64,000 nucleotides of DNA from an uncultured Candidatus Saccharibacteria bacterium (GCA_965230915.1 OZ246395.1:406284-470283), one strand, 5' to 3'; positions 35,442 through 60,507 are shown, counted from the first letter of the stretch. The notes: a model not told the origin generated them from the sequence alone. Program-made: numbers and translations.

Positions 35442-35442
35442 T

Positions 35443-42151: not shown

Positions 42152-42156
42152 TTGAC

Positions 42157-42477: not shown

Positions 42478-42492
42478 TAATAAAATTGTAAA

Positions 42493-43623
42493 TTAATTAT
42501 TAATAATTTCCAGTAATCTATTATATTTCGAAACTCTTTCGCCCCTAGCAGGTGATCCAAATTTTGTGTAGTCGGCTTTAGCTCCAATGGCTAAATCTGC
42601 AATGAAGTCATCATTTGTGTCGGTTCCTCGATGAGAAATAATGACTCTCCAATTTGATTCTTGAGCTTGCATAATAACATCTAGTGTTTCTGTTAATGTA
42701 CCTATTTGATTTGGTTTTACTAAAATAGAATTACCTACGTCACGCTGAATACATTCTCGTAATGTCTTTATATTTGTCGTGGTTAAATCATCTGTTACTA
42801 CATTTATTTTATCTTTGTATTTTCGCGAGAAACTTTCCCAGCTGCCCCAGTCATTTTCAGAATAAGGGTCTTCGACCGAAATTATTGGAAATACGTCAAG
42901 CATAGTCTCGTAATCGGGGATATCTGCCGGATTCTTAATTTCGCTGGCTGCAACATCTAGAGCAATTTTTGCTCCATTTAGATGAGCATTTAGAAATTTG
43001 AGTGTTTTAAAGTTGTCAAAACCTTCAGGTGAAAATGCTCCTTCTGCTCCTACATTAGTTGTTTTGCCGGCCTCTTGAAGTGCTGTTTTAACTTCATTGT
43101 AGATTTTTGCGCCTTGGCCAACAGTATCAACTACGGCCATAAATTCTTGAATCGATGCTCCGCTATCTCCATGAACTCCACCTTCGAAAATAAGCATGAG
43201 CATTTGTGGCATTGTAAAAGTAATTTCGTCGAGTGAAATTTCAGGTTCAACAATCGTGTGAATGTATTGATATGTTTCTATCTTTTTAGATTTAGCTGTG
43301 GCTTTGCAAAATGCAATTGATAATGAGAGCAATGTGTTTCCGCCTAAATTGGATTTATCGTGTGATCCATCAGTTTTTATCAAAAGTTCATCGAACTGCC
43401 TCTGAGATGAAAAATTTACACCTATTAGTTTATCTTTTAGAGTTTCAATATTTTCAATCGCATTTTCAGGTTCAATTGAAACAACTTCGCGTTCACCGCG
43501 GGAGATTCCTCCGGGTACCGATGCAACGCCAATAGATCCATCTTCTAGAGTGATCTTAGTTTCAATGGTCCATTTAGCTCCGGAATTTAATATTTTTCGA
43601 CTGGAAATATCTTTGATTATCAT
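42493..43623 (-). CDS. eno: enolase (short form, 376 aa)
   Basis: It has ILVKPNQIGTLTET, ISHRGTDT and a Mg-binding pattern. Confidence 0.9.
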   Translation of the reverse strand: MIIKDISSRKILNSGAKWTIETKITLEDGSIGVASVPGGISRGEREVVSIEPENAIENIETLKDKLIGVNFSSQRQFDELLIKTDGSHDKSNLGGNTLLSLSIAFCKATAKSKKIETYQYIHTIVEPEISLDEITFTMPQMLMLIFEGGVHGDSGASIQEFMAVVDTVGQGAKIYNEVKTALQEAGKTTNVGAEGAFSPEGFDNFKTLKFLNAHLNGAKIALDVAASEIKNPADIPDYETMLDVFPIISVEDPYSENDWGSWESFSRKYKDKINVVTDDLTTTNIKTLRECIQRDVGNSILVKPNQIGTLTETLDVIMQAQESNWRVIISHRGTDTNDDFIADLAIGAKADYTKFGSPARGERVSKYNRLLEIINN

Positions 43624-43632
43624 GACTTCCTC

Positions 43633-45927
43633 CTATTTTTTCTTATGTGCCAGTTCGAATTCAGATTCTGAAACTATTTTTCTGGTTAAATAAGCTACAT
43701 CGGCTGAAACCGAAACTGATGTTGCTCCCCATGCGACTAATTTTTTGGTTAGGTCAGGATATCTTGATGGAGCTTGTCCGCAAATCGATGACTTAATATT
43801 ATGTTTTTTTGCTGTTGTTATAGCATGTTCAAGAGCCCACAAGACTGCAGGGTTTCGCTCATCATATATATGTGCGATTTTTTCGTTATCGCGGTCGACA
43901 CCAAGAATTAACATAGTCAAATCATTTGAACCGATAGAGATTCCATCTATTCCGACTTTTATGAATTCTTCTAATAAAATTACAGCTGAAGGAATTTCCA
44001 CCATCATATAAAGTTCAAAACTTCCACCTCTATTTAGTCCATATGTTGTTAAAAGTTTTTTGATTTCTTTTAATTCGTCAACAGTGCGAACGAAAGGCAA
44101 CATTAAATGTAAGTTTTTATAACCTTTTTTGTTTCGAATTATTTTAATCGCCTCGACTTCTAGTTTAAATACTTCGGTATCAATTAAATATCTTGAAACT
44201 CCACGGTATCCGATTAATGGGTTTGATTCTTCACCTTCGTATTTATCTCCACCTTTTAGTGACCGGTATTCATTGGTTTTAAAGTCGGTTGCGCGGTAAA
44301 TAACTGGTTTTCCATCAAATGCCTTTACAAAAACTTCTAGGTTTTCTACCAGTTTGTCTGTGAATTGTTTACCCTTGCCTTCTTCGATAAATTTCTTTGG
44401 GTGCTTACCTATTTTTTCGGCAATCATGAATTCAGCGCGTAGTAGTCCAACACCGTCGACTCCCATTTTTGCAATTTCTGGAGCTTGTTCCGGTTCGCCT
44501 AAGTTTACATAAACTTTTGTAGCTGTCTTTGTATTTCTGTATTCAGAATAATCTTGCTCCGGTTTTGCATCTTTTAACTTTTTAGCATGATCTCCGGAAT
44601 AGATTTTTCCTTTATAACCATTAACTGTAATAATTTCGCCGTTTTTAAGCATTGTTGTTGCAACGCTAGTTCCGACAACCGCCGGAATACCAAGTTCTCT
44701 CGAAACAATAGCTGCGTGAGATGTCGCTCCGCCTTTGTCAGTAACAATAGCTGCGGCACGTCGCATAGCAGGAACAAAGTCAGGATTAGTCATTTCGGTG
44801 ACTAATATTTCACCTTGTTTTACTTTATTAATTTCTTTTGCCTCGTGGATTATCCGAACTTTTCCGGAACCGTAGCCTGGAGATGCAGGCATTCCCTCAA
44901 ATAGTAAGTCGCTGATCGAAACTTCATCATTTGAGCCTTCATTTCCAACATTAACTTTGTTTTTCTGATTTAAAGTCGTAATTGGGCGTGTTTGTACGAT
45001 ATATAGTTTGTTCCCTGCCATACCCCATTCAATATCTTGAGGGTGGTTATAATGGTCCTCAAGTTGTTTACCAATGTGGGCAAGTTGAACGATATGTTTA
45101 TCGGATAATTTTTGAGCTTTCTGGAAGTCGCGCGAAATTTTTATACGCCCTTTTTTAGTTAATTGCCATGTTTGTGGAACAATATTTTTCTTTTGAATTT
45201 TAAAACCGTTTTTTGAAACAATATATTGATCAGGCGTAATTTCTCCAGAAACAACTGTTTGACCTAGCCCATACGCGGCTTCAATTGAGATTTCATCTTT
45301 ATTGTATGTAAGTGGATTAACCGTGAACATGATTCCGGAGGTTTCGCTTTGAACCATTAGTTGAACTGGAACTGCGATACCAATCTTAAAATGGTCGAAT
45401 TTCTGCTGAACACGATAGTAAATTGCACGTGCTCCAAATAATGAAGCCCAGCATTCTTGTGTGTACTTAACAACTTCGTTCCATCCAATAATATTTAGGT
45501 ATGTCTCTTGTTGACCGGCAAAACTTGCATCAGGTAAATCTTCTGCGGTTGCAGATGAGCGGACGGCTACAGGTTTGTCTGTGTTGCCGCATAGCATATG
45601 ATATGAATCTTTAATAGAAAGCTTAATGTCTTCTGGCATTTTTTCGCCCAATATCATTTTTTGGACTTTTTCTGCTTTTGATTGAAGTTTTTTAGAGTTT
45701 TCGACATCTAGCCCTTTTAATTCTGCCTTAATTTTCTTCATTAAACCTGTTTTTTCTATAAATTCGTAATATGCATGTGAAGTTACAACGTAACCATCAG
45801 GTACAGGTATGTTTGCTCTGAACATTTCGCCAAGGTTTGCACCTTTTCCACCTGCAATAGGAAGGTCTTTTTTAGAAATATCAGAAAATGGAAGAGTATA
45901 ATGGTTGGATTTTGTATCTTTAGGCAT
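43633..45927 (-). CDS. ppsA: phosphoenolpyruvate synthase (pyruvate, water dikinase)
   Basis: It has an ATP-grasp N-terminus (IAGGKGANLGEM), a phospho-His swivel domain (GGATSHAAIVSRELGIPAVVG) and a PEP-utilising TIM barrel C-terminus. Confidence 0.9.
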   Translation of the reverse strand: MPKDTKSNHYTLPFSDISKKDLPIAGGKGANLGEMFRANIPVPDGYVVTSHAYYEFIEKTGLMKKIKAELKGLDVENSKKLQSKAEKVQKMILGEKMPEDIKLSIKDSYHMLCGNTDKPVAVRSSATAEDLPDASFAGQQETYLNIIGWNEVVKYTQECWASLFGARAIYYRVQQKFDHFKIGIAVPVQLMVQSETSGIMFTVNPLTYNKDEISIEAAYGLGQTVVSGEITPDQYIVSKNGFKIQKKNIVPQTWQLTKKGRIKISRDFQKAQKLSDKHIVQLAHIGKQLEDHYNHPQDIEWGMAGNKLYIVQTRPITTLNQKNKVNVGNEGSNDEVSISDLLFEGMPASPGYGSGKVRIIHEAKEINKVKQGEILVTEMTNPDFVPAMRRAAAIVTDKGGATSHAAIVSRELGIPAVVGTSVATTMLKNGEIITVNGYKGKIYSGDHAKKLKDAKPEQDYSEYRNTKTATKVYVNLGEPEQAPEIAKMGVDGVGLLRAEFMIAEKIGKHPKKFIEEGKGKQFTDKLVENLEVFVKAFDGKPVIYRATDFKTNEYRSLKGGDKYEGEESNPLIGYRGVSRYLIDTEVFKLEVEAIKIIRNKKGYKNLHLMLPFVRTVDELKEIKKLLTTYGLNRGGSFELYMMVEIPSAVILLEEFIKVGIDGISIGSNDLTMLILGVDRDNEKIAHIYDERNPAVLWALEHAITTAKKHNIKSSICGQAPSRYPDLTKKLVAWGATSVSVSADVAYLTRKIVSESEFELAHKKK

Positions 45928-46387: not shown

Positions 46388-47767
46388 TTATGATTTTATC
46401 AGGTTTTCAACCTCTTTTACTTTTTCATCAACCAAATTTTGGGATTTTGCTTCTACATTTAAACGAACAACCGGTTCGGTATTTGATTTTCGTAAAGAAA
46501 ACCTCCAGTCGCGGTCTGAATCTACTGCAACTCCATCAAGTTTATCTATTGGAAGCCCCGCTTCTTTATAATGAGCTTCGACTTTTTCTAAAACTTCATT
46601 GGCATCTTCAACTTCGTAGTTTATTTCTCCACTAATAAAGTATTTTGATTTGTATTCGGCTAACATTTCGCCCAGCGACTTACCTGAATCTTTGATAAGT
46701 TCAAGAATTAGAGCAATTGTTAGAGCTGAACTATCTGCGTAATATAAATCTTTATAAAAGAAATGAGAGCTGGTTTCTCCACCAAATACTGAATCGATTT
46801 CGCGCATTTTGGCTTTTAGAAATGCGTGTCCTGCAATATATTCGACTGGAATTCCACCTGCCGCTGTAACCGTATCTTGAATCGCCCATTTTAAGCGGTT
46901 TTCGTGCACTATTTTTGCATGCGGGAATTTTTCTAAGACTTTTTTACCTAAAAGACAGATTATAAAGTAGCCCAAAGAAAATTCGCCCTTTTCGTCAATA
47001 AAGAAGCAACGATCTGCATCACCATCTAGAGCAATTCCCAGGTCGGCTTTTTCTTCGATAACTCGGTTTTTTAAGTCGGCAACATTTTCTTCTTTAATTG
47101 GATTTGCTTCATGGTTTGGAAAAGTTCCATCGGGTTCAAAATACATCGGAACGACTTCTAAATTTGTTCCGCCAAATACTCGCTCGAACATTTCACCGCC
47201 CATTCCATTTGCAGCATCAACTACAACTTTTAATTTTGGAAGTTCGTGTAAATTAACGATTTCATGAATCGCCTCGCGAAAAGGAACATACGGATCTAAA
47301 TCACGAACCTGAATTTCCTTTTTTAGCATTTCATAGTTTTGTTTTGCTACAAAGTCACGAAAATCATACATTCCAGTGTCAGCTCCAACTGGAACTGAGC
47401 CTTTTGTTACCATTTTGAATCCGTTGTATTGTTTTGGGTTATGAGAGGCAGTAATCATTATTCCAGCCTCTAAGCCGAACTTTCCGACTGTAAAATACAT
47501 TACTTCTGTTGGAACACGACCTAAATTTACTACTAGCGCATCGGCATCGGCGATACCTTGAGTAAGTGCTTCCCACATAGATGGGGATGAAATACGCATA
47601 TCGTAACCGACTGCAACTTCTTTGACTTTAAAATAATCTACAAATGCGCGGCCTACTGCATATGCAGTATCTTCATTTATTTCATCGGGAAAAACACCTC
47701 GAACATCGTATGCTTTAAAAATTGATGGATTAATTGGTGTCATATGTTTGCATTCTGCACAATGCAA
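46388..47767 (-). CDS. phosphomannomutase/phosphoglucomutase (alpha-D-phosphohexomutase)
   Basis: It has the active-site TASHNP motif and four-domain length (459 aa). Confidence 0.9.
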   Translation of the reverse strand: MHCAECKHMTPINPSIFKAYDVRGVFPDEINEDTAYAVGRAFVDYFKVKEVAVGYDMRISSPSMWEALTQGIADADALVVNLGRVPTEVMYFTVGKFGLEAGIMITASHNPKQYNGFKMVTKGSVPVGADTGMYDFRDFVAKQNYEMLKKEIQVRDLDPYVPFREAIHEIVNLHELPKLKVVVDAANGMGGEMFERVFGGTNLEVVPMYFEPDGTFPNHEANPIKEENVADLKNRVIEEKADLGIALDGDADRCFFIDEKGEFSLGYFIICLLGKKVLEKFPHAKIVHENRLKWAIQDTVTAAGGIPVEYIAGHAFLKAKMREIDSVFGGETSSHFFYKDLYYADSSALTIALILELIKDSGKSLGEMLAEYKSKYFISGEINYEVEDANEVLEKVEAHYKEAGLPIDKLDGVAVDSDRDWRFSLRKSNTEPVVRLNVEAKSQNLVDEKVKEVENLIKS

Positions 47768-47836
47768 ATAGTGTTGTCAATGAAAAGACCTATTATCGAT
47801 CGGGTATAACTATGGGGCTAATGTATAATTATATTC

Positions 47837-48586
47837 ATGGTTTTAAACATAAATAAGCCTCTTGGAATCACAAGCTACGACGTTATTCGAAGACTAAAAA
47901 AGCAATACCCAGGAGAAAGAATTGGTCACGCAGGAACGCTAGACCCTTTGGCTGAAGGTATTTTAATTTGCCTTGTAGGCAAACAAGATACCAAGCGCCA
48001 GTCAGAATTTATGGGAGTTGTTAAGGAGTATGAGTATGAAATGGTATTTGGATTCGACACCGATACTTATGATGTTTTAGGTCTTGTTAATGCTTCAAGA
48101 GAATATACTCCAAATGACATTGAAGCAAAAATAAAAAATAACCTGCAAACTAGAAAATTAAAACAGAAACTTCCGCCATTTAGCGCATCTAAAGTTAACG
48201 GAAAACCTTTGTACCGTTGGTATCTTGATGGACAAATTGATCGAGTGGAGATTCCCGAAAATAATATTGAAGTTTTGGAACACGAGTTGATGTCCACCAA
48301 TGTAGTTTCAAAATCGGATTTGCACGTAAAAGTTAATGAACTTGTTAACTTGGTTAATTCACGTTTTAGAAAAGATCAGGTTTTAAAGTCGTGGGAAGAA
48401 ACTTTATCAAATACTAATCAGACAGAATTTTTGACGGCCAGACTTCGCGCGAAAGTTTCAAAAGGAACTTATATTCGTGGATTAGCTAATGATTTAGGAA
48501 ATAAACTTGAAACAGGTGCGTGCACCTTAACTATAAAGCGCACGCAAGTTGGAGATTTTAAAATCTCTGATTCAGTTTCAATTTAA
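47837..48586 (+). CDS. truB: tRNA pseudouridine(55) synthase
   Basis: It has the catalytic Asp motif HAGTLDPLAEG. Confidence 0.9.
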   Translation: MVLNINKPLGITSYDVIRRLKKQYPGERIGHAGTLDPLAEGILICLVGKQDTKRQSEFMGVVKEYEYEMVFGFDTDTYDVLGLVNASREYTPNDIEAKIKNNLQTRKLKQKLPPFSASKVNGKPLYRWYLDGQIDRVEIPENNIEVLEHELMSTNVVSKSDLHVKVNELVNLVNSRFRKDQVLKSWEETLSNTNQTEFLTARLRAKVSKGTYIRGLANDLGNKLETGACTLTIKRTQVGDFKISDSVSI

Positions 48587-51417
48587 TTATTCGAGCTTAA
48601 CAAGTTTGTAAGCTTATAGAAGTTAATAACTTCTGGAGATGTTTTAACTTTTGTTGCAACGCCATTCGAATTTAAATCATTTGAAATAATAAAGTTATTA
48701 GAAGCCTTATCTAAAAGGTAAATTGCAGTTTTATTATTTGTAATTGAATTCAAGCTAATTTCATTGTCGCTTGTTTTAATATATGCGGCATTTGTATTGT
48801 CAGCTAATACGTTAGATCTGAAAATATTTCCGTTTGAATTTCCATAAACATAAATTCCGTGTCGGCTACTTCGCAGAACTTCATTATTAAGAACATAATT
48901 TTTGCCGCTATCTTCGTTTAGACGAATGCCATTTACGCTATTATTTACTTTGTTTCCTTCGATTAGATTTCCAGTAGAAGCCCAAATTGCGATTCCATCA
49001 TTATTATTTTCTATGATATTGTTGCGCACGATATTATCGTTTGAAGCCATATGCAACATTATTCCATGCAGCTTATTATCGCGTGAAATATTATTAACGA
49101 TTATATTGTTGTAGCACCTTTTTGAAAAAATAATTCCATGTATGCCATTTCTTTCAGCAATATTATTTTCAACAATAAAGTTATTCGAATCGTCATGTGG
49201 ATCTAGACCGTATACAACGTTGTCGTTAAATTTATTGTTTTTCCAGACGATTCCGGTAGCCCCATAAGTATATGCTCCAAAATAATTATGGTGATAATTA
49301 TTTCCGATTGATTCTCCTGTCGAAACATAGTGAGGATATGTTCTGGATGGGATTCTCCATGAAACTCCGTATGTTCCTCCTGCAGTTGTTAAATCTTTTT
49401 CTTTATAACCGAGCCAAGCCATTTCTGAGTTATAAATATCAAGTCTAGAATTTGCCTTCATTAAAACATAGCTTCGGCCATCATTATATTCTTCGTCGAA
49501 ATTATTTTTGTCGGTATCCCAGGAAGTTACTTTTGTATCCCGAATTGTTAAACGGCCATTATATCCAATTAAAGTCGCAAATCCTGAAGTGGTACTTTTC
49601 ATTTTTAGCCATGTTACATCTGGCGAAACGATATCTAGTGATGTTCCGCTTTCCATATATATATTTGCAGATAAAACCCATATGCCATCAGATTCTTTGG
49701 TTAAATGTGTATATCCGTCTTTCGCAGCAATGTCAGCAATTGTGAATTTGTGTCCGCGACCGGAAAGATAAATTGTATTAGTTGCCGCATCATATCTTTG
49801 TCCTCTCGCAGTTGGAGTTTTTCTTTGGTAATTGAACATTGTTAAAGGTTCATATTTAACCGGTTTAAGTGGAATAGTCAAAATATCTCCAGGGTTTACA
49901 CGGTCCCAGTTTGGCAAAATTGGGAAATTGAATTTCACAATCTCGGAAACAGGAATATTATATTCAGCAGCAATCTGTGAAAGGCTTTCGCCACCTTTTA
50001 CTTCGCGGCGAATTAAGCTTGGAGATGTATCAAGTTTATTTAATTCGTCTAAATTTGCAGAAATATCTTTAGTGGTAAGAGCTGAATCTTCTTTTAGATT
50101 TTGAGCAATTGTCATTCGAGCAGCATTAGCTTTCACTTCCATATCATGAAAGTGAAGATAAGGAATTGATGCAACAGCAATTAAGACATAAGCAGTATAA
50201 ATGTATGCTCCAGCTGTATTAATAATATTGGTTTTGCTCATTCTAGAAATATCCCAGCGTGTTAACCAACCTTGTGTTCTGATAGTTATTAAAGCAAAAA
50301 TACGTATTACGCCTGACCAGTATGAATAAATAATATAAGTAGGAATATGAATTATATGCATCGGATATCTTTTTAAATGTGGATATACTTTTATAGTACG
50401 GGTAATTAACCACCAAGCCAAAAGTACCGCAGCTGAAATAAAGTGTCCGTATGCTAATGAAATTGCAAAGAATGCAAATCCGTAAACCATTGTAAAAGGA
50501 GCAATAAATCTATCTACCAAAAAGAATAATAGATGTGGGTGTTTGCGAATCCATTTGCTACTAAGTGCTTTAGTGTCTGCTCTCCAGCTATTTCGTGCCC
50601 AACGAATTTTTTGTTTTGCGAATGTTTGAAAATCTTCTGTTCCTGGTGTTAATACAACTGCATTTTTCTGATAAACAGTTTTCCATCCGTCTGCTTGGAC
50701 TAGATTTGTTAAGCATTTATCATCACCGCTAATTGATTTCTTCCCCCAGAAATGTTCGTTTGTAAGTTGGTCGAGTAATGGTTTTACAGCTGAAGTTCTG
50801 TAAAATGCAGTTCTTCCCGATAAGCATGAAAGTGCATTTCCCATTCCAGATAAATATGGCATTTCGTCGAAGTAACGAAGGTCTAAAAGTATATCGAATA
50901 AAATTCGAGTTAAAGTATTTGGATTAGTAACGTTTTGCCTTGTTGCAACTCCTCCGACTTTTTCGTCAGCAAATGGAGCAAGTGCATTTTTCATAACCCC
51001 TTCTGTCCATTCTGTATCACTATCGATAAGTGCAACAATTTCATATTTTGCAAGTTTCATTCCTGTTGCTAAAGCTTCTCGTTTTCCGGGGATTTTTGTA
51101 ATTTCTAAAACTCCGTTTTTATATTTTTTCTGAAAGTCTTTAAAAACTTTTATCGAAGATTCGTCTGTATAGTCGATAACAGCAATAATTTCTGAAGGTT
51201 TTTCTTTGGCCCAAGAATCTAGCGCTTTTCTAAATCCAATTGGATCTTCATTATAAACTGGAGTAATAACCGAAACTTTTGCATTATATTCTGTTGTTTT
51301 TACTTTGTAGTAAAGGTGGCCACAGATTTTTTTGTATCCCCAGACGCTCCAGCGCCATAATCCAATCAAACCTATTGGAAGATACTCAACATAAGGAATT
51401 TCAGAGAACGATATCAT
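48583..51417 (-). CDS. fusion protein: processive GT2 polysaccharide synthase, TM helices, LysM domain and a right-handed beta-helix with a DPHD motif (mannuronan C5-epimerase-like)
   Basis: The GT2 part has VITPVYNE, IDSDTEW (DxD) and QKIRWARN (Q-x-x-R-W). Several TM helices follow. The LysM domain is GGESLSQIAAEYNIPVSEIVKF...GDILTIP. The PbH1/CASH repeats are NNIxxNxxHGI..., with GLDPHDDSNN. Confidence 0.8.
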   Translation of the reverse strand: MISFSEIPYVEYLPIGLIGLWRWSVWGYKKICGHLYYKVKTTEYNAKVSVITPVYNEDPIGFRKALDSWAKEKPSEIIAVIDYTDESSIKVFKDFQKKYKNGVLEITKIPGKREALATGMKLAKYEIVALIDSDTEWTEGVMKNALAPFADEKVGGVATRQNVTNPNTLTRILFDILLDLRYFDEMPYLSGMGNALSCLSGRTAFYRTSAVKPLLDQLTNEHFWGKKSISGDDKCLTNLVQADGWKTVYQKNAVVLTPGTEDFQTFAKQKIRWARNSWRADTKALSSKWIRKHPHLLFFLVDRFIAPFTMVYGFAFFAISLAYGHFISAAVLLAWWLITRTIKVYPHLKRYPMHIIHIPTYIIYSYWSGVIRIFALITIRTQGWLTRWDISRMSKTNIINTAGAYIYTAYVLIAVASIPYLHFHDMEVKANAARMTIAQNLKEDSALTTKDISANLDELNKLDTSPSLIRREVKGGESLSQIAAEYNIPVSEIVKFNFPILPNWDRVNPGDILTIPLKPVKYEPLTMFNYQRKTPTARGQRYDAATNTIYLSGRGHKFTIADIAAKDGYTHLTKESDGIWVLSANIYMESGTSLDIVSPDVTWLKMKSTTSGFATLIGYNGRLTIRDTKVTSWDTDKNNFDEEYNDGRSYVLMKANSRLDIYNSEMAWLGYKEKDLTTAGGTYGVSWRIPSRTYPHYVSTGESIGNNYHHNYFGAYTYGATGIVWKNNKFNDNVVYGLDPHDDSNNFIVENNIAERNGIHGIIFSKRCYNNIIVNNISRDNKLHGIMLHMASNDNIVRNNIIENNNDGIAIWASTGNLIEGNKVNNSVNGIRLNEDSGKNYVLNNEVLRSSRHGIYVYGNSNGNIFRSNVLADNTNAAYIKTSDNEISLNSITNNKTAIYLLDKASNNFIISNDLNSNGVATKVKTSPEVINFYKLTNLLSSNN

Positions 51418-52312
51418 CTGCTTTCTCCTCTACATTTACGGGCGTGCTTTGTTGAATAAGTCTGTTGTTAACTTCGACTGTAGCTCTTAAATGAATAGGA
51501 TCGTGTCCTTGGCTTTCGGCCCAGGTTAAAAATCCTTGCGTATCTTTTGGTAAGCAAACTCCTCCGAATGGACCCATGTCTTTTGTTCCATATTTCGGAT
51601 TCCAAAGTGCCTCTGCACTCTTTGTTACCAAATCAAAAACTTTTTCAGTATCTAGTTTTAGGGATTTTCCAATTTCTCTCATTTCATTAAAGAAAGAAAT
51701 TTTTGCAGCGTTCAATAAATTATGAACATATTTTTGGAATTCTGCTTCTTCTATTGTTAATCGATGAACTTCAGGAGCAAAGTCTTTATAAACTTTTTGC
51801 AAGATTTCAAAAGATCTGTCATCGTAAGCTCCGACAACTACAATCCAAGGGTTATCAAAGTCTTCAACTGCTTTATATGCTCGTAAATATTCCGGATTCA
51901 TACAAAGTCCAAAATCTTCGCCGACTTTTTTGCCTGAAACTTCTTCAGCTTTTTTTGAAAGTTCAACTGTTGTTCCTGGTGGAAGTGTGCTTCGTGTAAC
52001 TATAACTTGATAGTTTTTGTTATTTTTTATGACAACTCCAAGTTCTGCGACCGCACTTTGTAAATATTGAAGATCTACACTTTTATTTACAGTCGGAGTT
52101 GGGACCGCTAAAAAGTTTACGATCTCCTCACCTTTTTTGTATTTTGTGGATTTTAATTCTTCAGCGGAAATTGCCTTATAGCCTTCTGCTTTAATTTGCT
52201 CAATTCTAATCGGATTAACATCAACGAATGTGACGTCAAATCCACGTTTGAGGAATCCTCTGCCTGTAGCATAACCAACTACTCCTGAACCGATAACATT
52301 TATTTTGATCAT
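51401..52312 (-). CDS. UDP-glucose/GDP-mannose 6-dehydrogenase family protein, C-terminally truncated (303 aa)
   Basis: It has GSGVVGYATG (Rossmann fold), VPTPT, NPEYLR and the catalytic Cys in FGGVCLPKD. It stops about 45 aa after the Cys, so it has no nucleotide-sugar-binding C-terminal domain. It overlaps the GT2 start by 17 nt. Confidence 0.75.
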   Translation of the reverse strand: MIKINVIGSGVVGYATGRGFLKRGFDVTFVDVNPIRIEQIKAEGYKAISAEELKSTKYKKGEEIVNFLAVPTPTVNKSVDLQYLQSAVAELGVVIKNNKNYQVIVTRSTLPPGTTVELSKKAEEVSGKKVGEDFGLCMNPEYLRAYKAVEDFDNPWIVVVGAYDDRSFEILQKVYKDFAPEVHRLTIEEAEFQKYVHNLLNAAKISFFNEMREIGKSLKLDTEKVFDLVTKSAEALWNPKYGTKDMGPFGGVCLPKDTQGFLTWAESQGHDPIHLRATVEVNNRLIQQSTPVNVEEKADDIVL

Positions 52313-52363
52313 ATATTTGAAATTGATTTAGGCAGTGAAATCTTTTGGAGTGTATCACCCGAA

Positions 52364-53758
52364 TTATTTTTCAGTCAATAATTTTATGTCGAATTTCTTA
52401 TTTGTTGTTGAAGTTCCTTCGGTTGGTTGTTCATATACGATATAAAAATTATTATCATAATTATTTTTCGCGGCTAAATGAGGATAGTAAATATTTTCTC
52501 CTAATAAAATTTTGTATGTAAACTTATTTTCGAGCGAGTCGAACTTTGAAAAATATCCTTTAGAATCGATCGGGTCTTCTCTCGGGAATTCACTCTTATT
52601 TTGGTTTTCTAGCCAAACAATACCGACTTCATCATTTTTATTTGTTCCGAGTACAGGAAAGAACTGATAGGCATCACTTTCTAATACCGTTTGAGGCTTT
52701 GTCCAATTGCGGTTTTCTAAGATAGAAAAATATAATTCGGCTTTATCATCAACATCACTTCTCCAAGTCGCAATGATTTTGTCATTGTATTTTACGGCGG
52801 ACACATGACGTGAGTCATCAAACCCATTACTTATGTTTTTCCAATCGCTCCATGTTTCACCTTTATCATAAGAAATTGCGTGCCAGATTTGTTGGTCATT
52901 GCTTTCACGGCTTGAATAGAAAAATAAATTTAAATTATTATTAGAATCCAATAATAAATATGGTCGGGATTGAGTGTTATTCGGACTTGTATTAATGTTT
53001 TTCCATTGTGACCAAGTTTTACCACCATCATTTGATTTTATAAATTTAGCTTGCTGGTTTCTATTTTCCGAATCCTTCCCTTCCCAAACTATGTAGAGGT
53101 TGTCGCCTTCTGTTAGTATCTGCGGGTGCTCCTGCCAGTAATCTTCATCATCAGTGTATCCTTCAACTAAACTTGGAATAGTTGGTTTCGACCATGATTT
53201 TCCGTTATCAATGGAGCGAATATACTTAACCTGTCGACCATTATTGCTGCCTTCAGTAAGGCCATACCAAACTACATGAATTGTGTCGTTTTGATCTACC
53301 GCAATCGATGGAACGCGTTGGGTTGCCCCATCTGAATCAGTTACGACTTTATTGGATATTAATTTACCGTTTTTTGATTTAGATATATATATTTCGAAGT
53401 CTTCTTTAGTTTTTGCTCTGTAAGCTGTAAAGATTTCGCCGTTACTATTTATCGCTACTTTATCCTGACCCGTATATCCTAAGCCTTTATTATCATCAGT
53501 TGATCCTACTTTTACGATTTTGCCTGATGGGCTTGATTCCTTAATATAATCGTTCGGGCCGGTTGTTAATATTTGTTCTACTGTTTGTGAAATATCCGAA
53601 AATTCGACGGGGGAATCAAAGTCTTTATTAGAAAAAGTCCGGTACATAAGCGCCGAAACTACTATTATTGGAGCAAGAGCTACTGGTATATAAATGAAGC
53701 TCCACTTGAATTTGGGCATAACTTTAATAACTTTAGCCCGTAATCTAGGTGATTTCAA
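52364..53758 (-). CDS. BNR/Asp-box repeat protein (sialidase-like beta-propeller), N-terminally membrane-anchored
   Basis: It carries repeated S-x-D-x-G-x-T-W motifs: SIDNGKSWS, SNDGGKTWS and SYDKGETWS. Confidence 0.7.
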   Translation of the reverse strand: MKSPRLRAKVIKVMPKFKWSFIYIPVALAPIIVVSALMYRTFSNKDFDSPVEFSDISQTVEQILTTGPNDYIKESSPSGKIVKVGSTDDNKGLGYTGQDKVAINSNGEIFTAYRAKTKEDFEIYISKSKNGKLISNKVVTDSDGATQRVPSIAVDQNDTIHVVWYGLTEGSNNGRQVKYIRSIDNGKSWSKPTIPSLVEGYTDDEDYWQEHPQILTEGDNLYIVWEGKDSENRNQQAKFIKSNDGGKTWSQWKNINTSPNNTQSRPYLLLDSNNNLNLFFYSSRESNDQQIWHAISYDKGETWSDWKNISNGFDDSRHVSAVKYNDKIIATWRSDVDDKAELYFSILENRNWTKPQTVLESDAYQFFPVLGTNKNDEVGIVWLENQNKSEFPREDPIDSKGYFSKFDSLENKFTYKILLGENIYYPHLAAKNNYDNNFYIVYEQPTEGTSTTNKKFDIKLLTEK

Positions 53759-53885
53759 CGATTTTATTATATGAATTACCCTAAAATGGCAAAAAAGGCT
53801 GATTTGGCGGCTTTAAAAATTAGGCTTATGAATGCTATAATATTTCGGTACTTTTAAGTGGGTTCCCACATTTTTTCCGCTTCGC

Positions 53886-53962
53886 GGGCCAGTAGCTCAG
53901 TTGGTTAGAGCACCTGCCTTTTAAGCAGGGTGTCGAAGGTTCAAATCCTTCCTGGCTCACCA
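53886..53962 (+). tRNA. tRNA-Lys (anticodon TTT)
   Basis: A cloverleaf was folded by eye. The acceptor is GGGCCAG/CTGGCTC, the D-arm is GCTC/GAGC, the anticodon stem is CCTGC/GCAGG with loop CTTTTAA, and the T-arm is GAAGG-TTCAAAT-CCTTC. A CCA end is present. Confidence 0.85.
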
Positions 53963-53968
53963 TTTAAT

Positions 53969-56113
53969 CTAATTAACTTTGATAGTCTTAATCTCGGACT
54001 TATTCCCTGCTCTATCTTTTATATATACATCAAAGACATATTTCGAGCCGTTAATATCTGCCGGCAATGTGCAGGTAAAATTACCCTCATCCTCTAAGCC
54101 GCAAGATAAATTTGTGAATTTAATAGACTTGTCTGCATTATAAATATCAATATTTAAGGTACCCTTATCATTTGAAGACCCTTCGATATTTAAAGTTTTA
54201 GATGGACTAATTTTGATAGTAACTGCGTTTGTTATATTTTTAGAGTTTATTTTTGATATTGTAAATTCTGTTGGAGTTTTAGTATCGACAGTAAACTTAT
54301 ATATTTCAGATTTAACAGAAATATTAGTCGCATCAATAGAACTTATATACCATTCATATTTCCCGTCTTTTAAATTAGTAAATGTATAATTTGTTCGATC
54401 TTTATCTGTGCTGGCTATTCGGTTAAAAGTTTTATCTTTTCCAATTCGCTTAAGATGAATATCATACTTTACGGCTGCTGTAACCTTATTCCAAACTACA
54501 GTTACATCATCTGATTTGCTGTACCCATTATTTAAAGTTGGGTATTGTTTCTTCTCGCGGCCGCTACTATCTTCATAGGAATATTTTTTCTTAGTATTTG
54601 TTATTGCCGTTGCTCCTAAAGATGCAGCATCAGAATCTTCTAATCTTAAGAGATAACCATCATAATTATCATCAATATTGGGTTCTCTAGTATCCCCACC
54701 TAGATAATGGTTGAAGTCAGTTTCTTTTGAGAATGCGCCTGCTGCATATATGTATCCATTTTTTTCATTAAAATCTATTGATTGAACCAATGATCCGGCC
54801 TCTTCACTATAGTAAGAATGAACCCATCTGAAATTGCCATTTTCATCGAGAGCAAGAATATAACCAGCCCTGGCATCAGCATCGTATATTGCGTCAGATG
54901 GACCCGGGTCAAAATCCATAAACAGGTTATAATTGCTCCCCAGGTATACATTGCCGTCGCTTGTGACTGCCATGCTTTCCAAATTTTCTACATCATCAGT
55001 TCCGTATGTTACAGTCCATCTATATGTGCCGTCTGTAGAAAATTTACTAACATATACATCTGAATTAGCAGGTTCAGCAACCGTATGTATATCTTCGCTA
55101 TCTGTAGGATCAAAATCTATATAACCAGATCTAATGTATCCTCCACTATATACATTTCCTTTATTATCAAGCCTTACAAGTTGAGGAAGGTCATTCCCAG
55201 TACCCCCAAAAGTTTTGCTCCAGATAAAATTTCCATTGGAGTTATACTTAACCAAAAACCCATCCAGGCCGCCATTTGAAGTAACTGATGATGTACCTGG
55301 AGTTCCATCTAGATCTGCGCCATCAGAATACGAACCGACAGCATAAATGTATCCGTTCTTATCAATTGCTACGCCATAAACATAATCATTGTCTAGCCCA
55401 CCTAAAGTTCTTGTCCATTTATAATTGCCATCTTTATCGTATTTGGATATGAAACCTTCATAATTCTCTCCTGTAAGTAAATCTATACCTGATGTAGCAT
55501 CCATATCTATATCGATTCCACCAAAATCTCCGACAAGATAGATATTATCGCCATTCTGATCAACAGCTATGTCACTTGGTTCTACCACACCAGTGTCATA
55601 AGCTTTATACCAAAGCAAGGTGCCATTCTTATCATATTTAGCAAAAACAAGTGCTGCATCATCATTTGGTGTTACATTCGTTGTGCCTGAATTTGGATCA
55701 AGATCGAAAGTCCCATCAAAATAAAATGCTATATATATATTCTTATTTTTATCAACTGCTATGCGCGTAGAATTAGCATCCCCGTCGCCAATTATTCCTT
55801 TTGTCCAAATTTCATTGCCATTTTTATCAGTTTTACTAATAAAGACATTGTATCTGGATGTCACAGCAGTCAAATTATGAACTCCAGAACCCGGATCAAA
55901 ATCCGTTGTTCCTTTAAATCGTCCCATGGTCACAATATTTTCATCGGAATCGTGGGATATTCTTTCGAAAAAAGTTGTATCTGTTCCCGGATATGTTTTT
56001 GTAAAATTATATTTATGGTTGTCAGCGGCAAGTACCGGTTTAGTCATATAAAATATGGCGAGGATTAGAATAAATATTGCGGATAAAAATCTTTTGGCAG
56101 AAAGAAAAAGCAT
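53969..56113 (-). CDS. secreted SBBP-repeat (beta-propeller) protein with C-terminal Ig/Fn3-like domains
   Basis: It has a signal peptide and repeated D.NGN..W...GG..D..VA.D..GNIY..G and DFDPG.G units. Confidence 0.65.
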   Translation of the reverse strand: MLFLSAKRFLSAIFILILAIFYMTKPVLAADNHKYNFTKTYPGTDTTFFERISHDSDENIVTMGRFKGTTDFDPGSGVHNLTAVTSRYNVFISKTDKNGNEIWTKGIIGDGDANSTRIAVDKNKNIYIAFYFDGTFDLDPNSGTTNVTPNDDAALVFAKYDKNGTLLWYKAYDTGVVEPSDIAVDQNGDNIYLVGDFGGIDIDMDATSGIDLLTGENYEGFISKYDKDGNYKWTRTLGGLDNDYVYGVAIDKNGYIYAVGSYSDGADLDGTPGTSSVTSNGGLDGFLVKYNSNGNFIWSKTFGGTGNDLPQLVRLDNKGNVYSGGYIRSGYIDFDPTDSEDIHTVAEPANSDVYVSKFSTDGTYRWTVTYGTDDVENLESMAVTSDGNVYLGSNYNLFMDFDPGPSDAIYDADARAGYILALDENGNFRWVHSYYSEEAGSLVQSIDFNEKNGYIYAAGAFSKETDFNHYLGGDTREPNIDDNYDGYLLRLEDSDAASLGATAITNTKKKYSYEDSSGREKKQYPTLNNGYSKSDDVTVVWNKVTAAVKYDIHLKRIGKDKTFNRIASTDKDRTNYTFTNLKDGKYEWYISSIDATNISVKSEIYKFTVDTKTPTEFTISKINSKNITNAVTIKISPSKTLNIEGSSNDKGTLNIDIYNADKSIKFTNLSCGLEDEGNFTCTLPADINGSKYVFDVYIKDRAGNKSEIKTIKVN

Positions 56114-56217
56114 TAATAAAATTGTAACAATTGAAATATTTAAGTCTATATAGTGAATTATGATAATCGATCTAGAATTTTAGATCTTGCCATTTAAAAT
56201 AGTTTATACAAATCAAC

Positions 56218-56886
56218 CTATTTATTTGTTTTGAAAAGTATCGTTATATTTTCACCGTAAACTTCTGAGGTAGAATCACTCATGGAATCAACTTTTTTAG
56301 CTGGTTCATCGAAATTTTTCCCACTGGAAGTATTAAAATTGGTCTTCACTGATTTAATTTCAAAGGAGTTACCTTCAGCCGGTTGATCAAAGGTATCGAT
56401 CAGCTCTATATGTTTTTCCCCTTTGTTTAGAGTGCCACACTTTACCTTTGTATCCCTACCCTCAGGTCTGTCATATGCAGTATGAGTGAACTTAACATCA
56501 ACAGTAACTTCTACTGCCGTTTTTTCTTCTATGTTTTCAACTAGGATAAAGACTAAATTTTTATTTGGTGGATCTGCTCGTTGAAAATCATTAATTAAAT
56601 TACGGACATTATCTTTTGTGGCCAAAATGGGATATTTAGAAATAAACGCATCATCAATTTTGCTTGCTAAAATAAATTTAACTTTAATGTAAGGAAGTAC
56701 TTCACTATGAATTGTATGCAGAAGAGTTTTATAAGTAAGATATACGAAGACTAAGGTGAAAACAGCATTTATCACACCATCGTATCTAGAAAATTCATCT
56801 ATACTTCTCCACGCAAAGTAGGCTAGTGATAGTATAGCTAAACCTAATATTATTTCTGGGAGGTTGCTTTTAAAGTTCAATTTCAT
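56218..56886 (-). CDS. hypothetical membrane protein (222 aa)
   Basis: It has two N-terminal TM helices and overlaps the upstream ORF by 17 nt. Confidence 0.35.
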   Translation of the reverse strand: MKLNFKSNLPEIILGLAILSLAYFAWRSIDEFSRYDGVINAVFTLVFVYLTYKTLLHTIHSEVLPYIKVKFILASKIDDAFISKYPILATKDNVRNLINDFQRADPPNKNLVFILVENIEEKTAVEVTVDVKFTHTAYDRPEGRDTKVKCGTLNKGEKHIELIDTFDQPAEGNSFEIKSVKTNFNTSSGKNFDEPAKKVDSMSDSTSEVYGENITILFKTNK

Positions 56887-57190
56887 CCCTCCCGCTAAAA
56901 TTGTCCGTCTTACCTTTCAATTCATCTACGGCACTTTTTATTCTCGATTTTAGAAGCTTGATGAAATCCTCTGCGCTTTGTTCATCAGAAAATTGAAAGC
57001 TTGTATTTAGGCTTGTAACGGGGATTACGCTTCTCGCCCGTCCGTTATAATATATAGTTTCTGGCGCTATCGATATAGAAGGCGCTCCGAATCTTTTCAC
57101 ACGATCAATTTCGTCTTCCGAATACTCTGTTATCTCGACATTAACTAGATAGCTGCCAGCTTTTAAGTTTTTTTCTATTACAACCTTCAT
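56870..57190 (-). CDS. hypothetical protein (106 aa)
   Basis: ORF only. It is co-oriented and overlaps the next gene. Confidence 0.3.
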   Translation of the reverse strand: MKVVIEKNLKAGSYLVNVEITEYSEDEIDRVKRFGAPSISIAPETIYYNGRARSVIPVTSLNTSFQFSDEQSAEDFIKLLKSRIKSAVDELKGKTDNFSGRDEIEL

Positions 57191-57255
57191 AATTTACATA
57201 TATATTATGCATTTTAATCGCGTTACTACAAGCCCTTCATGATTTTAGGAAATTT

Positions 57256-58521
57256 TTATTTCACCACCACACTCACAGCCGAAGGCATCTTAGACTCGCC
57301 TAACTCGCTGTCCTCATCATTTTGATACACAGCAGATACTTTATAAGAATATGATCCTGCAGGTTTTTGAACTGTTGCGTCAGTATTTGTTGAGATCAAA
57401 ACATATTTATAATCTGATGACGATGTCTTTTCATAAATTTTATAGCCAATTATTTCGGCGTCGTCTTCGCCGGGAGCTGCTTTCCACGAAAGTTTTATTC
57501 CACCTGCAACGGCTGACCATTTAAGATTTGTTGGCTTTTTGTAATCTCCAACTTTTAAACTTGCGAATCTTTCATCAAATGCATCATCTGTAATTACAAT
57601 TTGTTCAGGTTCAGTAACTTCTGATTCTGTAGTGTTTTCAGTTTCAGAAACTTCACCAGATGTACCTGCTCCATTTCCGGTACATGTTCCATTATGACAA
57701 ACTTGTAATCCATAAATTGTTACTTGTGCAAAATCGCATTCACCTGCATCAGGTCCATCGGTAAGTTTTGTGCAATTATCGCCCGATTGGTTGTATGCTC
57801 CAGCTTTAAAATAAGCGCCGCTAAAGGTTTTATTTTTAACATATGGAAGGTCTGCTCCATTGTATACGTAATTGATTTTTCCATTTGATACTTTAAATCC
57901 TATCGAGAATTTGTGCCCTAAAGCATAACTATTTGTTACTAAATATCCATGGGTCGTATCGCCATCGGTGATCCAAATGCTATTTAGATTGCCATCACCT
58001 GTGTTACCTCCATATTTATTTGATTCGATTCTAAAGACAGTTACATCGTCATCCGAATCATGAATTTGCCCGGCAACTACAACCGGTTTATCGCCAATTG
58101 GTAAGATGTCTACAGATTGTTCGATAATCATTGAGTGATTTCCGGAAGTCGAAGACCACGATGCGTTATCTTTTCCATCATTTTTCATTTCTCGAAGTTC
58201 CGACCTCGGATTATTAGAACCTGAGGTCGTTTCGCCATCTGTTCGAACCTTAAAAACTACCCCATTTGCAGCTTCATTTAGATAAAACCACTCGTCTGCA
58301 TAAGTTTTTAGGCTTGGTGATGAGCTTATTTTAATCTCTTTGCCGTCATCGATCGGTAAAGTTAGTTTCCAATTTTTGGATCCGATAAGGTCCATCGGGT
58401 ATGTTATGCTGGCGTCAGATTCCTTCGGCATTTTTGAAAATGCAATGAATGCAATAATCGATAGTATTACAGCTCCAATGACTAAAAAAATGTTCATTAG
58501 CTGACTTGTCGCAATTTTCAT
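57256..58521 (-). CDS. PL7 family polysaccharide (alginate/polyuronate) lyase with an N-terminal membrane anchor and a C-terminal Fn3-like domain
   Basis: All three PL7 signature blocks are present in order: RSELREM, QIH (AGQIHDSDDD) and YFKAGAYNQ. Confidence 0.8.
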   Translation of the reverse strand: MKIATSQLMNIFLVIGAVILSIIAFIAFSKMPKESDASITYPMDLIGSKNWKLTLPIDDGKEIKISSSPSLKTYADEWFYLNEAANGVVFKVRTDGETTSGSNNPRSELREMKNDGKDNASWSSTSGNHSMIIEQSVDILPIGDKPVVVAGQIHDSDDDVTVFRIESNKYGGNTGDGNLNSIWITDGDTTHGYLVTNSYALGHKFSIGFKVSNGKINYVYNGADLPYVKNKTFSGAYFKAGAYNQSGDNCTKLTDGPDAGECDFAQVTIYGLQVCHNGTCTGNGAGTSGEVSETENTTESEVTEPEQIVITDDAFDERFASLKVGDYKKPTNLKWSAVAGGIKLSWKAAPGEDDAEIIGYKIYEKTSSSDYKYVLISTNTDATVQKPAGSYSYKVSAVYQNDEDSELGESKMPSAVSVVVK

Positions 58522-59174: not shown

Positions 59175-59396
59175 ATGCCACAAAAATCTGCCCCAAAATC
59201 TACCCGTGCTAAAAAGTCTTCTAGTTCAAAGTCAATGAAAGTTACTGAACCAAAATCGAACAGGCCATCGGCATTAGTTCCATTTTTAGTTGTATGTATA
59301 ATATTTGCTGCATTTATTGGATATTATATTGCCGATCAAAGAGCTATCATCGAAATTCATGGGATTTTGGCTAAGTGCCAACAAGCTTTAAGATAA
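59175..59396 (+). CDS. small basic membrane protein (73 aa)
   Basis: It has a K/S-rich N-terminus and a single TM helix. Confidence 0.25.
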   Translation: MPQKSAPKSTRAKKSSSSKSMKVTEPKSNRPSALVPFLVVCIIFAAFIGYYIADQRAIIEIHGILAKCQQALR

Positions 59397-59843
59397 AAGA
59401 TTTGCAATTTCTTCCGCCGCCTTATTTAAGTTATAGTTTGAGGGGATATGAATGAATGCGTAATTATTTGAGCTCATATTCGAAGAAATAAGGTATGAAA
59501 TTAAGTTGCAATAAGAAGACCCCATAGATTTATGTTTTTTTGCATTAGTAATAAAGTCTGCGATTTTTATTTTCTCCAAAGATCTTCGGGTGCTGTTTCT
59601 AAATATATTGGTACATTCGGACTCAATATGCAATTCTTTTGTTCCATTTGTCTTTCCCAATCCTAAAACTAAGTCGGTGGCTGATATACTACTTGTTATA
59701 TATTTTGCAAATTTTCGTATAGTTTCGGCATTTGAATCAATAAAATATTTATTTTTTACTGAAAGTAACTTCAAAACATCTTCGGAAATATTACCTTTGA
59801 ATGCAAAAATGTGGATATTCGATGGGTTTATATTATTGGGCAC
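59388..59843 (-). CDS. short pyroglutamyl-peptidase I (C15)-like protein
   Basis: SSYCNLISYLI is similar to the GTFVCNHVMY Cys motif, and AFIHIP is similar to GFIHVP. At 151 aa it is shorter than canonical Pcp. Confidence 0.4.
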   Translation of the reverse strand: MPNNINPSNIHIFAFKGNISEDVLKLLSVKNKYFIDSNAETIRKFAKYITSSISATDLVLGLGKTNGTKELHIESECTNIFRNSTRRSLEKIKIADFITNAKKHKSMGSSYCNLISYLISSNMSSNNYAFIHIPSNYNLNKAAEEIANLLS

Positions 59844-60507
59844 AATTGAATTGTTTTAAGCAAGCAGTTTTATCTCCAGGTAAGCTATTGCATACCGCAC
59901 ATGGGTCTTGCATTTTAGGTATATCATTCATCATTGCTGACATATCTATAAATTCTATATCGCTAGGTGGAGTAAACATATTATCATCTACATTCCAGCT
60001 ATCGCATTTGTATTCCATTTCTTTATTTATATCAAACGGAGCAGGGTTCGATGGTTGACCTGGCTGGCTTTCACTTTTCTCATATTGTGCCTGAAGTTCT
60101 TCTAAATCATATTGCATCATTACACCCTGTTGCATTTGGGAACTCCAGATATACATTTTATCTCCCATTTTGATCATGCTACCGGTCATATTTTGAGTTG
60201 GCTCATCACTTGTGATCTCATAATTGGTTCGCATATTATCTCCGGAGATGAAAACTGCACCAGAGATTGTTTTATTGTCTTGCATAAGTTCGTATGTACA
60301 GGTTTTGTTTTCGCCTGATTGTAGTAATGAGGCTAAATTTTTAGGTGTTAATTTTTCTGTGGTTTCACTGTTTGTGGTTTCTGTAGCTTGGTATGTAGTT
60401 TCTGTTTCTGGTGTGGGCTCTTCTGTGCTTTTGAACCATTTATAACCTGCAATTCCAAATAGTAAAACAGCAATAATTATAAAAATTGTAATAACTGCAC
60501 TTTTCAT
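59833..60507 (-). CDS. membrane-anchored/secreted hypothetical protein with a Cys-rich C-terminus
   Basis: It has an N-terminal TM helix and a T/E-rich linker. Confidence 0.35.
   Translation of the reverse strand: MKSAVITIFIIIAVLLFGIAGYKWFKSTEEPTPETETTYQATETTNSETTEKLTPKNLASLLQSGENKTCTYELMQDNKTISGAVFISGDNMRTNYEITSDEPTQNMTGSMIKMGDKMYIWSSQMQQGVMMQYDLEELQAQYEKSESQPGQPSNPAPFDINKEMEYKCDSWNVDDNMFTPPSDIEFIDMSAMMNDIPKMQDPCAVCNSLPGDKTACLKQFNCAQ

Follow-up and report, generated by a model that had tools for sequence, protein, structure and literature searches.

Can a bacterium of a seemingly minimal lineage build and edit an alginate-like polysaccharide, and with how few genes? The question is raised by positions 46388-58521 of a stretch of 64,000 nucleotides (the window: the whole of the DNA analysed here) from an uncultured Candidatus Saccharibacteria bacterium (GCA_965230915.1 OZ246395.1:406284-470283). 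An initial annotation had read these 12 kb as a single locus for synthesis and turnover of an alginate-like polyuronate, comprising a phosphomannomutase, a nucleotide-sugar dehydrogenase, a synthase fused to an epimerase-like beta-helix and a PL7 lyase. We find a smaller conserved core: a short nucleotide-sugar 6-dehydrogenase next to a protein that joins a processive GT2 synthase, through a LysM domain, to an AlgG-like beta-helix. With its two genes, this core probably (roughly 0.62) constitutes a synthase-dependent pathway to a surface polysaccharide of acidic, polyuronate type, and a polyuronate synthase-modifier module, stated more generally, is similarly likely (0.6-0.7).

Alginate-type polymers are made by brown algae and a few Pseudomonadota, and the bacterial system there consists of about 12 proteins spanning two membranes. 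The predicted alginate-like surface polymer would need far fewer parts. Full-text literature searches returned no description of the fusion or of alginate synthesis in Patescibacteria, none, for the candidate phyla radiation, of C5-epimerases or of genes resembling hyaluronan synthase, and none of GDP-mannose dehydrogenase in Patescibacteria. Databases give the proteins generic labels ('hyaluronan synthase', 'parallel beta-helix repeat protein' and 'UDPglucose 6-dehydrogenase'). The dehydrogenase-fusion module is nevertheless widespread and conserved, while uncharacterised.

A processive synthase fused to an AlgG-like beta-helix

The core comprises the following features, all on the minus strand:

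48583-51417: fusion protein, 944 amino acids (Pfam Glyco_tranf_2_3 4.7e-25, LysM 1.7e-6, NosD/Beta_helix 1.8e-22)
50083-51417: synthase half of the fusion, residues 1-445, GT2 domain and membrane helices
49870-50061: LysM domain of the fusion, residues 453-516 (Pfam LysM 1.7e-6)
48613-49800: AlgG-like beta-helix of the fusion, residues 540-935 (AlgG homology, NosD/Beta_helix)
49192-49212: catalytic motif Y736-G-L-D739-P-H741-D742 of the fusion, followed by K766/R767
51401-52312: short nucleotide-sugar 6-dehydrogenase, 303 amino acids (Pfam PF03721, UDPG_MGDP_dh_N, 2e-30; PF00984, central domain, 2.5e-17)

The end of the dehydrogenase gene and the start of the fusion gene overlap by 17 nt. All open reading frames (ORFs) annotated initially lie where they had been placed, Pfam and NCBIfam confirm every domain named, and the motifs quoted for the fusion, QKIRW (residues 269-273) and YGLDPHD (residues 736-742), are legible in its translation.

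The synthase-epimerase fusion is real and, as proposed, non-canonical, and it is not confined to this genome: it has at least 540 full-length homologues, the named ones mostly from Patescibacteria and most matches nameless. An exhaustive search gave 526 cluster representatives at E<=1e-30, and these include stand-alone GT2 proteins (~425 amino acids) as well as stand-alone, N-terminally anchored LysM-beta-helix proteins. The AlphaFold2 model of the fusion (predicted local distance difference test score, pLDDT, 90.5) runs from an N-terminal transmembrane helix through a GT-A domain, interface and transmembrane helices, a TQGWLTRWD loop and a last long helix to the LysM domain and the beta-helix; its best Foldseek matches are AlgG and hyaluronan synthase. 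LysM, present in most homologues, presumably binds peptidoglycan and marks the C-terminal part of the fusion as extracytoplasmic. Because the stand-alone GT2 relatives terminate just past the last transmembrane helix, LysM is an extracellular module and the stand-alone beta-helix proteins are anchored, we infer an extracellular beta-helix, positioned immediately over the synthase on the outer side of the membrane.

The synthase half carries a conserved IGxxGxWRWS in the N-terminal transmembrane region and the invariant motifs DSD, GDD, QxxRW and a gating-loop-like TQGWLTRWD, with a single transmembrane helix after the last of these, predicted to lead outside. It thereby has the features of class I hyaluronan synthases (DxD, GDD, QxxRW, a WGTR-type gating loop and an integral channel). 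Its best PDB matches are the Chlorella-virus and Xenopus hyaluronan synthases (E 1.4e-18), with BcsA and chitin synthases lower; the alignment with the Chlorella-virus enzyme (CvHAS) has 26% identity (E 1.4e-19), that with 7sp7 spans residues 109-393, including GDD and QxxRW, and Foldseek gives hyaluronan synthase at E 1.2e-17. Among NCBIfam models, NodC leads (3e-29, 102 bits), followed by PgaC (1.5e-12) and CelA (5e-4).

For comparison with the alginate machinery we took the Pseudomonas aeruginosa Alg8 and AlgG sequences from a P. aeruginosa metagenome contig. Alg8 (L015:11439-12932) is, over its full length, collinear with the synthase half (23% identity over 349 amino acids, E 6e-12), the alignment covering the N-terminal IGxxGxWRxS, the GT domain, the membrane helices and the gating-loop-like motif, after which both have one transmembrane helix. 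A hidden Markov model built from 120 fusions scored Alg8 at 76 bits and CvHAS, in two fragments, at 82+16 bits (about 98); BLASTP gave 55 bits for Alg8 versus 77+35 bits for CvHAS. The description 'Alg8-like GT2 with QxxRW' therefore holds for the processive family, the motif and the collinearity but not for any special closeness to Alg8: judged by these scores, the synthase is a member of the HAS/NodC/Alg8 group of processive GT2s.

The beta-helix is more specific. By phmmer, mannuronan C5-epimerases are the sole PDB entries to match it significantly: AlgG (4ozz, E 1.5e-27 over ~295 residues) and, more weakly (4e-8 to 4e-6), AlgE6, a mannuronan 5-epimerase (8xfq/8ja4) and AlgE4. Foldseek places AlgG (4nk6) first at E 1.2e-18, and P. 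aeruginosa AlgG aligns with 26% identity over 415 amino acids (E 5e-31). The NCBIfam AlgG model (NF038177) matches at E 1.3e-36, with 126 bits against an equivalog cutoff of 700. On these scores the domain is a true AlgG homologue, as had been proposed from its DPHD motif, and not an AlgG equivalog.

The catalytic residues are also kept. Aligned to 4ozz, the AlgG Tyr, DPHD and Arg fall on Y736, D739/H741/D742 and K766/R767; the AlgG Arg, 26 residues past the His, aligns with Lys766, and Arg767 comes next. Among 61 homologues, Y736, H741, D742 and K766/R767 are invariant and D739 is conserved in at least 90%. In AlgG, the DPHD His abstracts the C5 proton, Tyr314 positions a proton-donating water and the Arg neutralises the carboxylate (PMC4444821). 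In this fold one catalytic site serves epimerases and lyases alike, and AlgE7 is capable of both activities (PMC4444821).

A family of dehydrogenases without the nucleotide-sugar-binding domain

Two domains, the NAD-binding and the central one, make up the entire dehydrogenase; its C-terminal nucleotide-sugar-binding domain (PF03720) is missing completely. Alignments to full-length enzymes end at about residue 282-317 of 436-478, and the TIGR03026 score (189.4) falls just under the cutoff (189.8). All 120 of its 120 best homologues are equally short (278-349 amino acids) and lack PF03720, so the truncated enzyme represents a family. A pseudogene was considered and ruled out, length and catalytic residues being conserved in more than 100 homologues. 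T109, E141, K194, N198, C253, K256 and D257, the equivalents of the Thr, Glu, Lys210, Asn214, Cys268, Lys271 and Asp272 of AlgD, are invariant among the short enzymes.

By sequence, the dehydrogenase, initially labelled 'AlgD/Ugd-like', has AlgD as its best PDB match (136 bits), followed by the archaeal Pyrobaculum UDP-glucose dehydrogenase (3vtf, 129 bits) and the rest at 96 or below. By fold, the AlphaFold2 model (pLDDT 93) superposes on AlgD (1mfz) with a TM score of 0.86 and a root mean square deviation of 2.3 Å, as against 0.61-0.70 and 10-13 Å for UDP-glucose dehydrogenases. A stretch SGKKxGxDFG is common to the short enzyme and AlgD and absent from the UDP-glucose dehydrogenases shown. 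The best NCBIfam matches, by contrast, are the UDP-glucose dehydrogenases AglM and TuaD, and in a neighbour-joining tree the short enzymes form a clade of their own (100% bootstrap) whose union with the AlgD-like GDP-mannose dehydrogenases receives only 47%. The family assignment stands, as does AlgD as the best solved relative; a supported grouping with either GDP-mannose or UDP-glucose dehydrogenases was not obtained. Binding of the nucleotide part of the substrate by an enzyme with no C-terminal domain makes the family an enzymological puzzle of its own.

A separate tblastn search of plasmids with AlgD returned only AlgD-like genes in Wzy-type clusters and no alg operon (L014 10001-14549; L100 5177-10527; L101 6619-12569). 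Deinococcus and Chondrinema plasmids encode a full-length AlgD-like dehydrogenase (~55% identical to AlgD) whose gene has an 'alginate lyase family' gene directly upstream and a GT4 glycosyltransferase gene directly downstream. A GT4 gene also follows the dehydrogenase on a Rhizobium plasmid, with heparinase II/III and alginate-lyase-family genes downstream.

Conserved linkage defines a core within a composite locus

To assess which neighbours belong to the core, we compared 11 independent relatives of the fusion (44-74% identity): the 74%- and 70%-identical relatives, GCA_964396025, Roizman-, Ames-, Davies- and Chisholmbacteria, and other metagenome contigs. The remaining features of the 12 kb are:

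46388-47767, minus strand: phosphomannomutase/phosphoglucomutase, PMM/PGM (Pfam PGM_PMM domains I-IV; NCBIfam matches under equivalog cutoffs)
47837-48586, plus strand: TruB, between PMM and the fusion
52364-53758, minus strand: BNR/Asp-box beta-propeller, membrane-anchored (Pfam BNR_2 4.5e-14; N-terminal transmembrane anchor)
53886-53962, plus strand: tRNA-Lys(UUU), between the SBBP and BNR genes (ARAGORN and Rfam)
53969-56113, minus strand: SBBP/Big propeller (Pfam SBBP and Big_13; N-terminal hydrophobic anchor)
56218-56886 and 56870-57190, minus strand: two overlapping ORFs of no family (no Pfam or NCBIfam match)
57256-58521, minus strand: PL7 lyase, membrane-anchored, with a C-terminal fn3-like domain (Pfam Alginate_lyase2 2.1e-39)

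In all 11 relatives, across Patescibacteria, the short dehydrogenase directly adjoins the fusion, often with overlapping stop and start codons; lineages with the pair include Saccharimonadia-like, Roizman-, Davies-, Ames- and Chisholmbacteria, among others. The BNR gene lies immediately upstream of the dehydrogenase in 5 of the 11, and in another five an fn3 protein is adjacent, ahead of the fusion in four and after the adjacent PL7 gene in the fifth (L096). The BNR protein is a probable accessory partner of the pair. In the Patescibacteria contig L097 (8001-15427), two tandem fusion paralogues of 973 and 978 amino acids flank one short dehydrogenase, and a PL7 gene follows.

A polysaccharide lyase adjoins or lies near the pair in 5 of the 11 relatives. 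In four it is a PL7 gene within 10 kb of the fusion, directly adjoining the pair on the same strand in three (L012 and L096, from Ames- and Chisholmbacteria, and L097) and less than 6 kb away in the closest relative. In Roizmanbacteria a Pel9A-like (PL9-like) beta-helix lyase occupies the PL7 position. The PL7 domain of the window shares 49% identity with AlyPG, a polyguluronate lyase (1uai, E 2.9e-48), AlgAT5 is similarly close, and the remaining PL7 structures score far lower. PF08787 matches with 136 bits (cutoff 29.7), and the signatures R(S/T)ELR, Q(I/V)H and YFKAG(x)Y are all present, in the forms RSELREM, QIH and YFKAGAYNQ that had been quoted; lyase activity is predicted. QIH usually marks G- or MG-active enzymes, with exceptions (PMC6165035).

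The other genes are not conserved neighbours. PMM adjoins only in the 70%-identical relative, which keeps the whole local synteny; in L001 it lies ~3 kb off, behind RuvC and PfkB. The SBBP gene and the two ORFs of no family are exchanged for other genes in the 74%-identical relative. Because PMM, SBBP and these ORFs are not conserved neighbours, and because TruB and tRNA-Lys, both on the plus strand, split the run, the 12-kb locus is composite: a (BNR)-dehydrogenase-fusion core and a linked PL7 gene, with unrelated or loosely linked genes between. The single locus first proposed is not upheld, as TruB sets PMM apart and the tRNA and the variable segment set PL7 apart. The tRNA-Lys marks the border between the core module and the segment 53969-57190, which looks like a variable islet outside the system. 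PMM has the PGM_PMM domains claimed for it and is a possible supplier of sugar-1-phosphate, but it lies outside the transcription unit of the fusion and its place in the pathway gains no backing from conserved linkage.

An alternative view is that the locus is in part coincidence, with only the dehydrogenase and fusion (with or without BNR) cooperating, PMM, SBBP and the genes of no family unrelated, and PL7 directed at alginate-like exopolysaccharide of foreign origin, to scavenge nutrients or attack a host. The interruptions by TruB and tRNA-Lys, the replaceable segment, the restriction of PMM linkage to a close relative and the 6 of 11 relatives with no lyase inside 8-10 kb all favour it. 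Its treatment of PL7 is harder to reconcile with the same-strand adjacency and short distances described above, given that, in a ~1 Mb genome, chance would bring a particular single-copy gene inside 10 kb in ~2% of cases. Taken as a whole we regard it as unlikely, although it fares best among the alternatives.

Both propellers, initially described as secreted, possess, like PL7, an N-terminal hydrophobic anchor. PDB searches gave only weak sialidase-repeat and generic propeller matches for BNR, and generic propeller matches for SBBP, with the CylK propeller at E 6e-23. The BNR and PMM ORFs as called mechanically both begin with TTG, and the exact BNR translation is absent from the protein collection; translation therefore probably begins at ATG codons further in, M14 of BNR and M9 of PMM. 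A promoter and terminator scan performed no better than on shuffled controls.

A proposed model for polymer synthesis, and candidate uronates

We propose that the polyuronate system would work as follows. The cytoplasmic NAD-dependent 6-dehydrogenase would oxidise a nucleotide sugar to the uronic acid, most likely giving GDP-mannuronate and possibly UDP-glucuronate. The GT2 half would polymerise the uronic acid and thread the chain through its own membrane channel, and the last transmembrane helix would set LysM, as a cell-wall tether, and the beta-helix directly outside the cell. There the beta-helix may abstract the C5 proton and epimerise uronates (M to G if the chain is mannuronan). The anchored PL7, near polyguluronate lyases in sequence, could then trim, release or recycle the polymer, with the BNR propeller, or the fn3 protein in other lineages, as an accessory surface partner. 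Homology, fold, domain architecture, gene linkage and the constancy of catalytic residues are established here; membrane topology, the chemistry of the polymer, an epimerase as opposed to a lyase activity and the part played by PL7 are predictions.

For the polymer itself we tentatively favour mannuronate/guluronate (ManA/GulA) chemistry, at somewhat below even odds, because three of the four catalytic components (epimerase domain, lyase and dehydrogenase) have their best characterised relatives in alginate metabolism. The assignment of the region to synthesis and modification of a uronic-acid polysaccharide is upheld; the donor may be GDP-mannuronate or UDP-glucuronate.

Several observations weigh against the proposal. 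Hyaluronan synthase and NodC, both users of UDP-sugars, score higher than Alg8 against the GT2 half. Missing from the dehydrogenase is the domain to which the nucleotide binds in all characterised enzymes of the family, and its tree gives the 47% bootstrap noted above with GDP-mannose dehydrogenases. Neither the window nor the relatives' flanks showed a GDP-mannose pyrophosphorylase. The catalytic site of the beta-helix, being common to both activities, does not tell epimerase from lyase. Finally, PL7 lies 3.5 kb from the core in the window, past the tRNA and the variable segment, and could act on foreign alginate-like polymers instead.

A rival reading is a chain based on glucuronate (GlcA). 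The same architecture might make a hyaluronan-like, glucuronan-like or N-acetylglucosamine/GlcA polymer, much as hasA-hasB does, with a UDP-glucose dehydrogenase, a beta-helix that converts GlcA to iduronate or cleaves the chain, and a PL7 of the glucuronan-lyase type; the PL7 family includes glucuronan lyases too. Class I hyaluronan synthases as the best PDB and Foldseek matches of the GT2 half, NodC as its best NCBIfam match, AglM and TuaD as those of the dehydrogenase, and the near parity of 3vtf with AlgD all fit such a chain. The two most specific matches, however, point to M/G chemistry, namely a beta-helix that matches mannuronan C5-epimerases only and a lyase 49% identical to a polyguluronate-specific enzyme. 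The dehydrogenase model also fits the AlgD structure far more closely than that of any UDP-glucose dehydrogenase, and Alg8 is a clear collinear homologue of the GT2 half as well. We consider a GlcA-based polymer rather unlikely, both as the outcome for this locus and as an explanation of its architecture.

That the beta-helix is a depolymerase, sizing the nascent chain or degrading host or environmental polyuronate, is quite improbable: the common catalytic site, the dual activity of AlgE7 and the Pel9A-like neighbour in Roizmanbacteria are compatible with it, but the significant sequence and fold matches are all epimerases (AlgG, AlgE4 and AlgE6) and not PL1, PL6, PL9 or PL31, the proton-donor Tyr of AlgG is invariant, and the separate lyase gene in 5 of the 11 relatives would make a second lyase redundant.

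The strongest form of the ManA/GulA reading is a true M/G polymer made by a two-protein machine, in which the dehydrogenase, having lost its nucleotide-binding domain, docks on the cytoplasmic GT2 domain and passes the oxidised sugar directly to the synthase while the tethered epimerase edits the emerging chain. We think this a long shot. If true, alginate-type systems would for the first time extend beyond Pseudomonadota and brown algae, and precursor oxidation, polymerisation and epimerisation would be coupled in a new manner. A conserved two-gene version, in bacteria that are ultra-small and probably episymbiotic, would show what is minimally required to synthesise a polyuronate and epimerise it. 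With the module, a major surface polymer would be identified for a bacterial branch that is poorly understood, possibly a polymer that mediates attachment to hosts, and the compact enzymes (a self-contained synthase-epimerase and a two-domain rather than three-domain dehydrogenase) could serve in the production of designer uronans.

Relationship to known polyuronate systems

The module resembles the alginate system of Pseudomonas and Azotobacter in its AlgD-family dehydrogenase, a GT2 collinear with Alg8, an extracytoplasmic beta-helix with AlgG residues and a polyuronate lyase. It differs in that synthase and epimerase form one polypeptide, joined via LysM, in that the dehydrogenase has no nucleotide-sugar-binding domain and in that the lyase belongs to PL7 rather than PL5. 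The host is a monoderm-like Patescibacterium, and hyaluronan synthase is at least as close to the GT2 as Alg8 is. Neither the ORFs scanned in the window nor the relatives' gene tables contain an Alg44/PilZ co-polymerase, and AlgK/AlgE (export), AlgI/J/F/X (including acetylation), AlgA (phosphomannose isomerase/GDP-mannose pyrophosphorylase) and PL5 AlgL were likewise absent from the window and from the relatives' flanks. The module does not belong to the canonical alg system; it is a reduced architecture of another kind, whose mode of action is probably similar.

The hasA-hasB and Chlorella-virus hyaluronan synthase systems provide the best match to the GT2 channel and share two properties with the module: one protein polymerises and translocates, and a dehydrogenase gene adjoins. 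Class I hyaluronan synthases have no extracellular modifying domain, whereas here one transmembrane helix past the gating-loop-like motif would place the C-terminus outside. The partner domains, AlgG-like and polyguluronate-lyase-like, point to ManA/GulA, unlike those systems.

The secreted epimerases AlgE1-7 and PsmE have in common with the fusion the beta-helix fold, the YG(F/I)DPH(D/E) motif and extracellular action on the polymer, which in the fusion is predicted. The fusion matches them far more weakly than it does AlgG (E 1e-6 to 1e-8 versus 1e-27) and has none of their Ca-binding R modules; a basic residue at the AlgG Arg site fits the Ca-independent type. The PL7 of the window is like AlyPG (Corynebacterium sp. 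ALY-1) over the whole catalytic domain and in all three signature motifs. Unlike AlyPG, it is membrane-anchored at the N-terminus, carries an additional fn3-like domain at the C-terminus and is linked genetically to a synthase, not to an alginate-utilisation pathway.

Genomic setting of the module

The Patescibacteria-like context proposed for the window is borne out by UvrB, whose best named homologues come from candidate division WWE3, the Patescibacteria group and Saccharimonadales. The contig from which the window comes measures 945 kb. The other genes of the window are housekeeping genes for DNA repair, type IV pili and glycolysis. Repair genes are unusually dense for a ~0.95 Mb genome (1916-4171, 15757-17784, 19774-21642, 24801-27278 and 29518-39793), the set comprising RecR, DnaX, RecG, MutL, a Y-family polymerase, MutS, UvrC, UvrA, UvrB and LexA. 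Sizeable ORFs with no Pfam match lie at 17926-19224, 34599-36054, 59388-60507 and 62431-63246; they include one of 432 amino acids, two between uvrA and uvrB, two that overlap and one of 271 amino acids close to the right end of the window.

The dehydrogenase-fusion module adjoins the genes for PGAM, enolase and phosphoenolpyruvate (PEP) synthase (41399-45927). On the Chisholmbacteria contig L096 (1-7000 and 12180-13409) it lies amid genes for PMM, GPI, PEP synthase, enolase, iPGM and PGK. A neighbourhood with genes of central sugar metabolism thus recurs in distant lineages.

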